From contig DITJ01000104.1 in assembly GCA_002422795.1 (NCBI GenBank), positions 15,324 to 79,323 on the forward strand: a stretch of DNA of 64,000 nucleotides. Direction: 5' to 3'. Position 1 is the stretch's first letter; each line of letters starts with the position of its first letter. The translations under genes and the position numbers were made by a program. Positions 23,260 through 28,324 of this stretch are shown here, one piece after another. The DNA is from Alphaproteobacteria bacterium UBA6187. GTDB taxonomy: Bacteria > Pseudomonadota > Alphaproteobacteria > Rickettsiales > UBA6187. The notes below the pieces were generated by a model. The model was not told the origin of the DNA, did not search any database, and saw only the letters and a program-made list of their open reading frames with translations.

Positions 23260-24324
23260 ATGCAAAGTAGCAATAAAGTTGGAGAGATCTCACCAGCTAA
23301 GAACTCTACCATCCTTAAAAAACCATTACATAAGATAAATAATGTTTTAAAAATCTCAGCGATAATTGAAACTATAATATTTTTATCAATAATTACAGCA
23401 GTGAGCCTTTTTGCCGGTGATGGAACCAGGTTCATGTATATCTCACCGCATCCGTTCTGGGTTATTATACTGCTTGTGATAATGCAATATGGAGCAAATG
23501 AAGCAATTGCGGCGGCAATCTTATCAAGTGTTTTTCTGCTATTTGGCAACCTGCCCGAACAATTCTTAACAGAAACTATGTATGAATATATATTGCGCGT
23601 GTTATCTCTGCCTTTTATATGGCTTGTTACAGCATTGATTCTTGGTAGTGTGCGTACCCGCCAGCTAAATGACCAGGCAGCCTTAAAGGACAAGCTGGAA
23701 AAGGCGGAAAGGGTAATAAAGACAATCAGTACCGGCTATAATTCGGTTAAGCAATCAAAAGAACAGTTGGAATTGCGCCTTGCTTCCGAAAAATGCAGCC
23801 TGCTTACAATATCGGAAATATCACGTTCTTTGCAAACTTCGGATATATCAAAAATTCCTGCAGCAATTGCAAGATTAGTGGATGTGGTGCTTTCCCCGGC
23901 TAAGTTTTCTATATTTTTCGAGGAAAATGACGACCTCTGCCTGCATAAATCTTATGGATGGAAAAAAACCGATTTGTACCGCACAATATTAGATAAAGAC
24001 TCTCCTTTGGCAAACCATATACTTAATAAACTCACCCCTTCTCTTTGTGTTACAAATATCGAAGAAGAGCCTATCCTTATGGGGCAAGGTATCATGGCGG
24101 GGCCTATTCTTGATAAGCGTAGCGGCAAAGTATTCGGCATGCTTAAAATAGAAGAAATGAGTTTTATGAATATGGGGGCGCACACAAGGGAGACCTTCCA
24201 GCTTTTATGTGAATGGATTTCTTCTGTATATATTAACATCGACAAGAAAAGAATTGCATCAGGAAGCCAGGACGCTACCAGCGCACAAGATTCGCTTCCG
24301 CAGGAGAAATTATATGCAGCATAG
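23260..24324 (+). CDS. pelD: PelD-like membrane protein: TM region, coiled coil and GAF-like domain, with no GGDEF-like domain (354 aa)
   Basis: First gene of a coupled four-gene set ending in clear PelF and PelG. It has ~4 TM helices, the coiled coil RTRQLNDQAALKDKLEKAERV and a GAF-like C-terminal half. The assignment rests on position and architecture. Confidence 0.6.
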   Translation: MQSSNKVGEISPAKNSTILKKPLHKINNVLKISAIIETIIFLSIITAVSLFAGDGTRFMYISPHPFWVIILLVIMQYGANEAIAAAILSSVFLLFGNLPEQFLTETMYEYILRVLSLPFIWLVTALILGSVRTRQLNDQAALKDKLEKAERVIKTISTGYNSVKQSKEQLELRLASEKCSLLTISEISRSLQTSDISKIPAAIARLVDVVLSPAKFSIFFEENDDLCLHKSYGWKKTDLYRTILDKDSPLANHILNKLTPSLCVTNIEEEPILMGQGIMAGPILDKRSGKVFGMLKIEEMSFMNMGAHTRETFQLLCEWISSVYINIDKKRIASGSQDATSAQDSLPQEKLYAA

Positions 24325-25414
24325 CAAAGGCAGGGAGTCTATAATTGCAGTTATCCTTCTGGCCGGGCTTGCAATGGCCGTTGATCTTGCGGCATTTGCT
24401 ATTGCTATAAAGTCACATCAATTAATTGTGGCTGTGTGCATCCACTTGGCACTTGGCGTGGTATTATCAGGATTGGTATATTACCGCATTTCCAGGAATA
24501 AAGATTACCGCTTTACAGTTTTACTTTTGATAACGGTGCTAGCAGCAGGGCCTTTTGGCAGTACTATATGCCTTCTTGCTGTAATTGGATATATGTATTG
24601 CTCCCTTAGTGCCAGTTCGCCGGATGAGTGGATAAGCAGTATTTTTTCTTATGCAGAAGAAGAAAATAAATTATATGAACAAATCTCATTCGACATGGAT
24701 AATATCCGTAAAGTCTCGGGTGTAGAGCCCTTCCAGAACATACTAAGCAGCGGCACAATGCTACAAAAGCAAGCGGTTATCGCCAAGATGACTCGTTATT
24801 TCCGCCCTGAGTTTTCTCCGCTTATGATAGAAGCAACCCAGGACGCTAATGCTGCAATACGTGTGCAAGCTGCGGCCTCATTATCTAAAATTGAGCGCCA
24901 GTTTACCTTGCGTTATGTGCAATTGGAAAAACAGTTGAAAGATACCCCCCCTTATAAGGCAGAATGGCTGGAACTTGCTGAAATTTACGAAGAATATGCA
25001 AGTGCTGGATTAATAGATGAATATAGCATTTGTGCTTTTCGCGAAAAGGCGGCTAAAATCTATCAGGAATATTTATCCGTTACCCATGACCTTGAAATAC
25101 AGGCGCGCCTTGCCCGCATATATTTAAGACAAAACCGCCCGGAAGTTGCCAATAAATTACTTGGGGATTTAATAAATGCCGGGGAAAATATATCGCCCGC
25201 CGCTTTGCTTTGCTACATAGAATCATTCTTTAACCTGCATAAATTCGACGATGTAAGGCGCGTGGTAAATCATTACGTTGCCGAACTCGCAACACTTGAT
25301 AAGCATAAATATATGGCGAATATTGATGAAGCCCTGCATTTGTGGGAACAGGAATTTAGCAACGATAACCGTAAAAATGAACAATATACAAGCGAGAAAG
25401 TTTATGCAGCATAA
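24314..25414 (+). CDS. pelE: PelE-like membrane / helical-repeat (TPR-like) protein (366 aa)
   Basis: The ATG at 24314 follows AGGAG and overlaps the pelD end by 11 nt. It has N-terminal TM helices followed by a helical-repeat region. The assignment is mainly by position between pelD and pelF. Confidence 0.55.
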   Translation: MQHSKGRESIIAVILLAGLAMAVDLAAFAIAIKSHQLIVAVCIHLALGVVLSGLVYYRISRNKDYRFTVLLLITVLAAGPFGSTICLLAVIGYMYCSLSASSPDEWISSIFSYAEEENKLYEQISFDMDNIRKVSGVEPFQNILSSGTMLQKQAVIAKMTRYFRPEFSPLMIEATQDANAAIRVQAAASLSKIERQFTLRYVQLEKQLKDTPPYKAEWLELAEIYEEYASAGLIDEYSICAFREKAAKIYQEYLSVTHDLEIQARLARIYLRQNRPEVANKLLGDLINAGENISPAALLCYIESFFNLHKFDDVRRVVNHYVAELATLDKHKYMANIDEALHLWEQEFSNDNRKNEQYTSEKVYAA

Positions 25415-26942: not shown

Positions 26943-28324
26943 TGGCAGGTATTGGTTTTGTTTTGCGCCGCTTATACAGGCAGGATAACCTTTCCGGGTT
27001 ATTTAAACTATGTTTGCATTCGGTTGTTGCATCCACTGGTCCATGGCTGTTTACAGTGCTGGCTTTGGGGACTATCGCATTTCTAGGTAAAAATATTGTA
27101 CCCCTTGAAATACTTACAAATTTCCGGGCAATATTAATTTATAATTTCTCCTTCTCGCTGATAATCTCCGGCCCTATATTCATGGTTGCCACACGCTATT
27201 TGGCCGATTGCATCCATAGGCGCGATGTATCCAACGCCCCCGGAATGTTACTCGGCTCATTAACGTTGCTATGGTTTTGCGAATTAATCCTTGCCAGCAT
27301 ATTTTATTTCTACTTTATTGATTTAAGCTTCCCCATGGCGCTTAGTGCGGTGGTTAATTTTCTACTTATCAGCGCGGTATGGCTGTTTAGTATATTTATT
27401 TCTGCACTTAAGAATTACCAGCTAATCTCGCGCAGTTTCCTTGCCGGCATGGTGGTTGCTGTATGTGCAAGCACTCTGCTTGCCCCGCAATATGGTGAAA
27501 TTGGGCTGATAAATGGTTTTTCCCTTGGTATTTGCATAATTATAGGGCTGCTTGCTGCAAACATATTAGCAGAATATCCTTTTTCAATTAAAGAGCCTTT
27601 CGCATTTATTAGCTATTTCAGGAAATATTGGGAAATAGCCTTAAGCGGTTTTATATGCAATCTGGCAATATGGGTTGATAAATGGATTATGTGGTTTTCT
27701 CCTGAAGCCATTACGCTTAAAAGCGGGTTAATAATTTATCCTGATTATGATAGTGCTATGTTCGTTGCTTATCTTACAGTAGTCCCGGCTATGGCTATAT
27801 TCCTATTCAATATAGAGACTAATTTTTTCGAAAAATATGTAAGGTTTTATAATGATATTGAAAACCAATCCAGTTTTGCAAAAATTCGCAGGAACCACCA
27901 TGCATTAATGCGCAGTATTGTAAGTAATTCAGGTTATCTTTTCTTACTACAGGGCATTATTGCAATAATAGGGGTGCTGATGGCCCCGCAGATAATATCC
28001 TTATTAAGCGGCAATTACATACAGATAGGTATGCTGCGTTACGGATTATTAGGAGCATTGTTCCAGGTGCTTACAGTGTTGCTCCTTATTTTACTGTCTT
28101 ATTTCGATAACCGGAAGGCGTGTCTTTTCATCCAATTTGCTTTTTTGGGCATGAATAGCATTTTTACACTGGTTGCAATGAATGCCGGGTTTAAATATTA
28201 CGGTTATGGCTATTTCCTTGCATCGTTCCTTACTTTCCTGATTTCAGCAATGATAACTGTGAAATATGTCGCCAAGCTGCCGTACCATACATTTATCACT
28301 ACAAATACCTCTGTAACATCATGA
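26942..28324 (+). CDS. pelG: PelG-like polytopic membrane protein (MOP/flippase-like, 460 aa)
   Basis: It starts MAGIGFVLRRLYRQDNLSGL as PelG proteins do and has about 12 predicted TM segments. Its ATG overlaps the pelF TAA (TAATG), with AAGGAGG just upstream. Confidence 0.8.
   Translation: MAGIGFVLRRLYRQDNLSGLFKLCLHSVVASTGPWLFTVLALGTIAFLGKNIVPLEILTNFRAILIYNFSFSLIISGPIFMVATRYLADCIHRRDVSNAPGMLLGSLTLLWFCELILASIFYFYFIDLSFPMALSAVVNFLLISAVWLFSIFISALKNYQLISRSFLAGMVVAVCASTLLAPQYGEIGLINGFSLGICIIIGLLAANILAEYPFSIKEPFAFISYFRKYWEIALSGFICNLAIWVDKWIMWFSPEAITLKSGLIIYPDYDSAMFVAYLTVVPAMAIFLFNIETNFFEKYVRFYNDIENQSSFAKIRRNHHALMRSIVSNSGYLFLLQGIIAIIGVLMAPQIISLLSGNYIQIGMLRYGLLGALFQVLTVLLLILLSYFDNRKACLFIQFAFLGMNSIFTLVAMNAGFKYYGYGYFLASFLTFLISAMITVKYVAKLPYHTFITTNTSVTS

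Follow-up and report, generated by a model that had tools for sequence, protein, structure and literature searches.

A compact pelDEFG locus with a short PelD devoid of the GGDEF domain in a Rickettsiales-like alphaproteobacterium

The pelDEFG locus

Pel is among the most widespread biofilm polysaccharides and the textbook control point of its synthesis is the binding of cyclic di-GMP (c-di-GMP) to PelD. The locus described here lies within a stretch of 64,000 nucleotides (nt), hereafter the window (~40% G+C), of contig DITJ01000104.1 of Alphaproteobacteria bacterium UBA6187; it comprises pelD, pelE, pelF and pelG, preceded by a conserved non-coding block and followed by a response-regulator gene (Table 1), and its PelD ends shortly after a GAF domain.

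Table 1. Features of the pel locus in the window
Feature	Coordinates	Strand	Size	Description
Conserved non-coding block	23135..23206	+	72 nt	54-125 nt upstream of pelD
pelD, short form	23260..24324	+	354 aa	Membrane helices, long helix and GAF domain
pelE	24314..25414	+	366 aa, counted from ATG	N-terminal membrane domain and helical-repeat (TPR-like) domain
pelF	25404..26942	+	512 aa, from ATG at 25404	Cytoplasmic GT4 glycosyltransferase, polymerase
pelG	26942..28324	+	460 aa	Polytopic inner-membrane protein, presumed translocase
Response regulator	28546..29262	+	238 aa	OmpR/KdpE-like; Pfam Response_reg and Trans_reg_C

The four plus-strand open reading frames (ORFs) described in the initial annotation, together with their overlaps, were all confirmed, the junctions being read directly. 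The ATG of pelE lies 11 nt inside pelD, whose TAG stop occupies 24322-24324, and the ATG of pelF lies 11 nt inside pelE, whose TAA stop is at 25412-25414; pelF and pelG have a TAATG in common at 26940-26944, and a GGAGG Shine-Dalgarno sequence serves pelG. The first two junctions are nearly identical, both reading TATGCAGCATA(G/A), with one frame ending in ...YAA-stop and the other opening with MQH.... The longest ORF of pelE opens at a GTG (24209) and the source's gene call is the 366-amino acid (aa) form; the calls of that source, a 142,259-bp contig of ENA assembly ERZ27315062 in which the window occupies positions 74863-138862, agree on all four proteins (354, 366, 512 and 460 aa). There is neither a frameshift nor an internal stop, the four ORFs being full length with respect to the family profiles, and the overlap between the pelE start and the pelD stop is also kept in relatives. 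The pelDEFG genes of the window are intact, conserved and translationally coupled.

Four of the five proteins encoded by the pel genes and the regulator gene end with Ala-Ala (PelD ...LYAA, PelE ...VYAA, PelF ...KEAA and regulator ...KIAA, at 24313-24324, 25403-25414, 26931-26942 and 29251-29262, respectively), an ending present in one of the 50 other window ORFs of at least 100 aa; the regulator orthologues likewise end in -AA or -SA. In PelD and PelE this ending results from the shared junction sequence; it may reflect translational coupling or, alternatively, serve as a signal for C-terminal degradation.

The proposal that the locus comprises pelDEFG only was borne out; PelF and PelG pass curated models and PelD and PelE match locus profiles. 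PelF scores 431 bits against the NCBIfam PelF equivalog NF038011 (cut-off 100), contains the Pfam domains DUF3492 (256 bits) and Glycos_transf_1 (88 bits) and displays no hydrophobic segment in its hydropathy profile. PelG matches the Pfam model PF16933 with 392 bits, its residues 1-451 being aligned to profile positions 1-452 of 452, and has eleven hydrophobic segments. In PelE three to four N-terminal hydrophobic segments, as judged by hydropathy, are followed by a helical C-terminal domain of ~260 aa with weak matches to Pfam TPR families (TPR_12, TPR_19); a word-indexed homologue search returned a single relative, and the assignment was made by hydropathy and by a profile of the genes that, in 69 loci, separate pelD from pelF (E = 2e-106). 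The D- and E-position profiles come from ~70 pel loci, most of them also endowed with GH114, PelA-like and PelB-like genes. No solved structure of PelE, PelF or PelG was present in the PDB copy searched.

PelD and the loss of the GGDEF domain

Searched against hidden Markov model libraries, the 354-aa protein yields a match to GAF_3 below threshold and nothing else; no match to solved PelD is obtained with the single sequence or with its closest long-form relative (P0011), and even the PelD family profile reaches an E of about 0.3 only. Since no strong pairwise match exists, homology to PelD rests on profile, fold and synteny: the local PelD profile matches the window protein with E = 1.5e-122, the position before pelE is kept in more than 70 loci, and the homologues, which fall into two length classes, include proteins that JGI names PelD. 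The closest of these relatives are 51-54% identical by alignment and 52-59% by BLASTP, and the ~90 invariant positions indicate purifying selection.

The AlphaFold2 model of the protein (40 homologues in the alignment; mean predicted local distance difference test score 87) has membrane helices up to about residue 130, forming a four-helix domain as in the Pel synthase core, one long helix that runs from residue 107 to 193, then a GAF fold (196-333) and a disordered C terminus (338-354). Comparison of this model with the PDB by Foldseek matched GAF domains at E ~1e-5 and, at E ~6e-4, the half of P. aeruginosa PelD (4dn0, 4etx) that contains the GAF domain, and no GGDEF fold was present among the matches. 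Beyond the GAF core 34 aa are left in the window PelD, the last 17 of them disordered, vis-à-vis 139-199 aa in most long forms and ~320 aa in a few of them, so that the degenerate GGDEF domain at the C terminus with its RxxD I-site, a feature of PelD, is missing.

The nature of the long-form tail was established with a profile derived from an alignment of 37 long-form relatives and searched against the PDB. Past the GAF domain this profile matches true GGDEF domains, among many others that of DosC 4zve (E = 5e-7), its consensus "RetD" being opposite the RxxD I-site of DosC, and its GAF part matches PelD 4eu0 at E = 2e-3; thus, the long forms have the PelD architecture, i.e., membrane domain, GAF and degenerate GGDEF with I-site. 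The Pfam model PelD_GGDEF (PF16963) matches none of 40 relatives, long forms included, and is therefore useless as a test, so that a GGDEF-tail profile was built to assess domain loss, with the long forms as positive control. It matches 62 out of 62 long-form loci, none of the 25 other short-form loci (any frame, within 10 kb) and nothing in any frame of the window and of the 9 kb further upstream. Because all long loci and no short locus are matched, the short PelD represents a clean domain loss. The earlier suggestion that the protein stops right after its GAF-like part is hence upheld by the AlphaFold2 model, by Foldseek and by the tail profile, and it can be stated with high confidence that the PelD of the window has neither a GGDEF domain nor an I-site. 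A split gene, with the GGDEF-like part encoded separately, was also considered and is ruled out, since the tail profile matches nothing in any frame of the window.

Distribution of the short PelD

The pel loci surveyed were 74 from GTDB species genomes, the best of which is 47% identical to that of the window, and 29 from JGI metagenomes. The short form had been deemed unusual, a judgment that did not survive the comparison. Indeed, pelD is short in 26 of the 88 loci in which it is complete and in a single piece, and 1.84 billion cluster representatives, when searched exhaustively, yielded 1,161 PelD relatives, the best 150 of which comprise about 25-28 short forms (roughly one-sixth) and 119 long ones, the short ones being scattered across the tree; furthermore, the occurrence of pel in Rickettsiales has been published (PMC9352585). 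A neighbor-joining tree of the shared PelD region, to be taken as indicative only, places the short forms in at least eight separate places, the groups concerned including Chlamydiae, several alphaproteobacterial groups and one gammaproteobacterial metagenome-assembled genome (MAG). The GGDEF-less PelD is a frequent natural variant, not a rare one, and clean loss of the domain appears to be common and recurrent in diderms, including Alphaproteobacteria, Chlamydiae and others.

Accessory pel genes and c-di-GMP genes near the locus

In the usual layout of the surveyed loci, a GH114 hydrolase (~290 aa), a PelA-like protein of ~750 aa, itself unannotated, and a PelB-like protein (TPR plus barrel, 1300-1500 aa, its gene often split) are encoded before pelD, pelE, pelF and pelG. 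Profiles of the GH114-type (c4) and PelA-like (c5) proteins, built from 42-45 loci, and of the PelB-like protein, built from 59 loci, were searched against six-frame translations of the window and of the 9 kb lying further upstream (L078), a total of 73 kb that extends 32 kb upstream and 36 kb downstream of the pel locus. The first two profiles found no match at E ≤ 1 in the 73 kb; the PelB-like profile found no real match there either, its best window match being PelE itself at E = 0.039. Neither a GH114 hydrolase nor a GalE-type epimerase was found within reach of the locus. As to c-di-GMP, no GG[DE]EF or EAL motif occurs in the window ORFs and the Pfam annotation of the window genes contains no GGDEF, EAL, HD-GYP or PilZ domain; Rfam has no match in the window, and therefore no c-di-GMP riboswitch is found there. 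The initial annotation, that had recognized no PelA, PelB, PelC or GGDEF/EAL homologue, holds for PelA-like, PelB-like, GGDEF and EAL proteins by profile, motif and Pfam over the window and the 9 kb upstream; as for PelC, the surveyed related loci have no ORF of its size between the PelB-like gene and pelD.

The four-gene layout devoid of PelB-like and PelA-like genes is shared by the related loci L080, L081 and L085, whereas most short-PelD loci still adjoin both genes. The window PelD falls in a clade in which all members are short. The outer members of this clade (L005, L012, L086 and L087) retain the PelA-like and PelB genes and, in all but L087, also GH114, which indicates an earlier loss of the GGDEF domain. 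The inner sub-clade consists of the window, L080 (57% PelD identity), L081-L084 (53%) and L085 (50%), and no PelB-like or PelA-like gene is found within 5-32 kb of these loci. This inner sub-clade couples the short PelD to the loss of the porin and deacetylase-like genes from the locus and to the gain of the regulator gene described below.

Two members of the sub-clade have a GH114 gene divergent from pelD (L080:1-1014 and L085:6788-8836, both on the minus strand), whose product is fused to RTX calcium-binding repeats, with eight HemolysinCabind stretches in L085; the latter locus contains also a GalE-type epimerase gene. RTX repeats are typical of type I-secreted proteins, and their presence in these GH114 sequences is suggestive of an enzyme that is secreted and, by consequence, of a polymer located outside the cell in these relatives.

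In the L081 lineage, PelE is only 109 aa long (L081:11118-11447, and also in L082, L083 and L084) and ends with ...HPSDWISA, so that its membrane segments are kept, the ~260-aa helical-repeat domain is gone and pelF follows almost directly. The presence of the same form on contigs from several samples indicates that this is not a one-off error.

The regulator gene and the block upstream of pelD

The product of the gene following pelG matches Response_reg with 80 bits and Trans_reg_C with 73 bits, and its closest solved relatives by sequence are the KdpE structures (E = 2e-49). Its Glu56 (...VLLELGLP...) is opposite the phospho-acceptor Asp of KdpE 4kny (...IILDLGLP...) and its Gly13 replaces the second residue of the acidic pocket. 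Orthologues (at least 299 bits) located 30-222 nt after pelG occur only in the window, L080, L081-L083 and L085; all four have Glu at the phospho-acceptor position and all four lack the second acidic-pocket residue as well. A paralogue in L080, located beside a histidine kinase gene, has the canonical Asp, and none of the window genes is annotated by Pfam as a histidine kinase. With Asp replaced by Glu, the regulator is probably phosphorylation-independent. Its conserved position makes it a candidate transcriptional regulator of the pel genes, a role to which we would assign slightly less than an even chance.

Synteny with the L081 locus extends past the regulator (window 29460-31834 vis-à-vis L081:15427-17614, with two genes inverted) to genes encoding an erythromycin-esterase family protein, a protein of 130-144 aa and a CBS-domain protein.

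The conserved block upstream of pelD contains two copies of a motif with a TTATAA core set 11 nt apart (CTTATGA-AAAT-CTTATAA, 23142-23159), to which are added a third and weaker one (23164-23170) and, at 23197-23205, the sequence TGTAATATT, which resembles an extended -10 element. Alignment of the block from the window, L080, L081 and L085 has 36 invariant columns. Local alignment scores for the pairs among window, L080 and L081 are 24-28 compared with 12 ± 1.7 for shuffled sequences and are reached by none of 500 shuffles; those of the pairs with L085 are weaker (15-20), between 5 and 33 shuffles out of 500 reaching them. No conservation is seen in the pelG-regulator spacers of these loci, and CTTATRA-N4-CTTATAA has a single exact match in the window, namely that in the block. 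Repeat layouts of this kind are bound by OmpR/PhoB-family proteins; the block may represent the pel promoter and the binding site of the regulator, their pairing in the window being presumptive. That the locus might be regulated differently, as suggested at the outset, thus gains support from the conservation of both the Asp-less regulator and the upstream block.

A copy of the repeat pair with one mismatch, ATTATAATATGCTTATAA, is found at 46750-46767, between the divergent genes at 45688-46674 (minus strand) and mnmG, which starts at 46880 (plus strand); the former encodes a 327-aa protein without Pfam match that looks glycosyltransferase-like by eye.

The host and other features of the window

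The alphaproteobacterial nature of the host, originally surmised from the sequence, agrees with the GatB encoded in the window, that is 72-81% identical to its best named relatives, MAGs labeled "Rickettsiales bacterium" and "Alphaproteobacteria bacterium". A secretin gene (43864-45444) and type IV pilus assembly proteins are encoded in the window, indicating a diderm host with an outer membrane. The pilus genes lie at 40509-45444, 707-1450 and 57510-58244 of the window and at L078:6092-7800; they specify a 726-aa fusion of PilM and PilN, a PilO-like protein and the secretin, and around them are scattered pseudopilin genes, at least four in number, that are paralogous and encode N-methyl sites. 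This gene complement agrees with the lifestyle, piliated and attached to surfaces, that has been proposed for free-living Rickettsiales.

A 503-aa fusion of a GT2 glycosyltransferase with a class I methyltransferase is encoded 2.2 kb upstream of pelD (19537-21048, minus strand); it is not conserved beside pel in the relatives, where one weak match (L106) was obtained. The description of the sequence as repeat-ridden finds no correspondence in its tandem arrays, the class of repeats covered, for which Tandem Repeats Finder gives only five tiny examples in 64 kb.

Interpretation

The reading that we favor, and that we regard as rather probable, is that the whole ensemble constitutes a c-di-GMP-independent Pel variant with transcriptional control. 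In this diderm, Rickettsiales-like alphaproteobacterium PelDEFG would represent a functional synthase module of the Pel type, located in the inner membrane: PelF would polymerize a nucleotide sugar and the chain would be moved across the inner membrane by PelG in concert with the membrane portions of PelD and PelE. In characterized Pel systems the substrate of PelF is UDP-GalNAc and, by analogy with its use by PelF in P. aeruginosa and B. cereus, the module presumably makes a Pel-like polymer. The membrane and GAF scaffold of PelD is retained, its entire degenerate GGDEF domain being lost, and because of this loss the synthase would not be switchable by c-di-GMP at the PelD I-site. Control would have been shifted to transcription, with the orphan OmpR-type regulator acting on the repeat-bearing block upstream of pelD, and export would proceed by an unlinked route or with the products of unlinked pelA and pelB genes. 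The gene content, the loss of the domain, the conserved synteny, the replacement of Asp by Glu and the conservation of the upstream block are observed, whereas the identity of the polymer, the pairing of regulator and promoter and the export route are the presumptive elements of this scheme.

Several observations weigh against it. Foldseek ranks generic GAF domains above PelD for the 354-aa protein and direct sequence comparison links it weakly to the PelD of P. aeruginosa, with E from about 2e-3 to 0.3. The link between regulator and promoter rests on synteny and sequence conservation; the proposed motif is AT-rich and palindromic, with a weak enrichment of loose matches in the window, nine compared with 2.9 expected (2 of 100 shuffles reach nine), and generic promoter and terminator scans perform no better than on shuffled sequences. 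Neither a UDP-GalNAc 4-epimerase nor a deacetylase was found in the window. Finally, the 73 kb covered belong to a contig of 142 kb of an unfinished metagenomic genome, the remainder of which may contain pelA, pelB or pelC, diguanylate cyclase genes or a further receptor of c-di-GMP; the rearranged loci of relatives mentioned in the next paragraph tell against the favored scheme as well.

The best-surviving alternative, possible albeit less than likely, is a split locus, in which unlinked PelA-like, PelB-like and perhaps PelC-like genes would provide canonical export and modification and only the domain loss of PelD would be special. Rearranged pel loci do occur in relatives: on one 2.1-Mb MAG chromosome labeled Rickettsiales (OZ244955.1) two long-form pelD-pelE pairs (L008 and L010) lie ~1.4 Mb apart, neither of them followed by pelF or pelG, one placed after a PelB-like gene and the other after epimerase and PelA-like genes; in L087 the PelB and PelA-like genes are downstream on the opposite strand, and in L034, L037 and L038 there are insertions between pel genes. 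About half of the source contig was covered. On the other hand, four lineages (the window, L080, L081-L084 and L085) have no PelB-like and PelA-like genes within 5-32 kb on either side, whereas neighboring clade members have both adjacent; the absence being common to four lineages, any relocation would be old and stable and not an accident of assembly.

It is improbable that the product is not exported but re-purposed, i.e., that it is a neutral polymer, periplasmic or cell-bound (a capsule-like or envelope glycan), instead of a secreted matrix. Such a product would accord with the failure to find a PelB-like or deacetylase-like gene in the 73 kb and with the PelE of L081-L084, that has lost its helical-repeat domain and points to a simplified complex, but the RTX-repeat GH114 genes beside the locus in L080 and L085 are most simply explained by a secreted enzyme and an extracellular polymer.

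Even less credit can be given to the idea that the genes are what decay has left, without function, of a pelABCDEFG operon as the genome shrank. It is true that three to four genes of the canonical set are missing, as is one domain of PelD, and that PelE is truncated in one related lineage, but the four ORFs are full length, free of frameshifts and internal stops and with their overlapping starts preserved, and lineages with PelD identities of only 50-57% have kept the layout of five genes, the short PelD and the upstream block. That the GGDEF domain was removed by a frameshift or a chimeric join arising in sequencing or assembly is conceivable for a sequence from a metagenome assembly but can be practically dismissed, because the same PelD is recorded in four independent sources and an identical pelG is found on contigs from other samples, no GGDEF-like coding potential exists downstream in any frame, the other 25 short loci display the same clean absence in independent assemblies, and the overlap of the pelE start with the pelD stop is conserved in relatives.

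Beyond the c-di-GMP-independent variant favored here, a broader reading can be put forward, with correspondingly greater caution and as a tentative one that we would not consider likely. The short PelD, PelE, PelF, PelG and the Asp-less regulator would form a distinct five-gene module of diderms, making an extracellular Pel-like polymer without c-di-GMP input at the synthase; a phosphorylation-independent regulator would act on the TTATAA-repeat box, the outer membrane would be crossed without PelB or PelC, and the receptor domain of PelD would have been lost many times in Gram-negative bacteria, at variance with the prevailing opinion that every Gram-negative PelD is a c-di-GMP receptor.

The presence of pel clusters in environmental, deep-branching Rickettsiales was already known (PMC9352585). 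What is new here is that the GGDEF-less PelD is widespread in diderms and that a sub-clade exists in which it is accompanied by the loss of the porin and deacetylase genes, by an atypical regulator and by a conserved target-like site. The apparently recurrent loss of the GGDEF domain in diderms runs counter to the view, found in the literature, that confines this loss to streptococci (PMC7890745) and, if true, many environmental Pel systems would be wired to signals other than c-di-GMP. The sub-clade offers a compact, testable case, with four synthase genes, one atypical regulator, one upstream block and no dedicated porin or deacetylase gene in the locus. Should pelABC be truly absent from the genome, the question would be how a synthase-dependent polymer can cross the outer membrane without a porin; should these genes simply be elsewhere in the genome, the finding would shrink to a known system with a variant mode of regulation.

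Comparison with known systems

The window locus shares with pelABCDEFG of P. aeruginosa the D-E-F-G order, the PelF (GT4 plus DUF3492) and PelG families, the four-helix membrane domain and the GAF of PelD, and the membrane and helical-repeat parts of PelE. It differs in that the PelD of P. aeruginosa, a c-di-GMP receptor (4dn0, 4etx, 4eu0), possesses the degenerate GGDEF domain and the RxxD I-site that are missing in the window PelD, in that no PelA or PelB gene is found within the 73 kb and in the presence of a response-regulator gene after pelG.

Atypical regulators of the OmpR/PhoB family without the phospho-acceptor Asp are represented by ChxR of Chlamydia and HP1043 of Helicobacter. As these are commonly described, the window regulator resembles them in consisting of a receiver and a winged helix, in the replacement of the phospho-acceptor Asp and in the lack of an adjacent cognate kinase gene; among the solved structures, those of KdpE are closest to it by sequence.

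In the literature searched, loss of the GGDEF domain is described only for the class IV PelD of streptococci (PMC7112168, PMC7890745, PMC12345266); according to a 2021 review this class is exclusive to streptococci and a three-domain PelD is found in all studied Gram-negatives (PMC7890745). As in the window, the class IV protein has lost the GGDEF domain and c-di-GMP cannot act through it (PMC7112168, PMC7890745, PMC12345266), and in both cases regulation is suspected to have passed to additional genes located after pelG. Unlike class IV, whose N terminus bears a degenerate SDR domain, the window PelD has none, since its ORF opens at 23260 (stop-to-stop frame from 23203) only 29 residues before the first conserved position. 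Of the two features of the Gram-positive pelDEA(DA)FG loci, a monoderm host and a pelA(DA) gene between pelE and pelF, neither is found here, the host of the window being diderm and the 11-nt overlap leaving no room for a gene between pelE and pelF.

With the pelDEA(DA)FG locus of B. cereus (PMC7112168) the window has in common a compact organization without PelB or PelC and, as far as the relatives L080 and L085 are concerned, a separate, divergent glycoside hydrolase (PelA-hydrolase-like) gene nearby. On the other hand, B. cereus has a PelD that retains the GGDEF I-site and requires c-di-GMP, as well as a deacetylase gene within the operon, and neither feature is present in the window.

Finally, "derived" pel clusters have been reported in the free-living, deep-branching Rickettsiales Mitibacteraceae and Athabascaceae, where functional equivalents of PelB and PelE were described and the domain content of PelD was not discussed (PMC9352585). 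The window differs from these clusters, its locus having no PelB and its PelD being truncated, and yet resembles them, the clusters being pel genes of environmental, flagellated and piliated Rickettsiales-like alphaproteobacteria; the window carries type IV pilus genes and its GatB is closest to those of MAGs labeled Rickettsiales.

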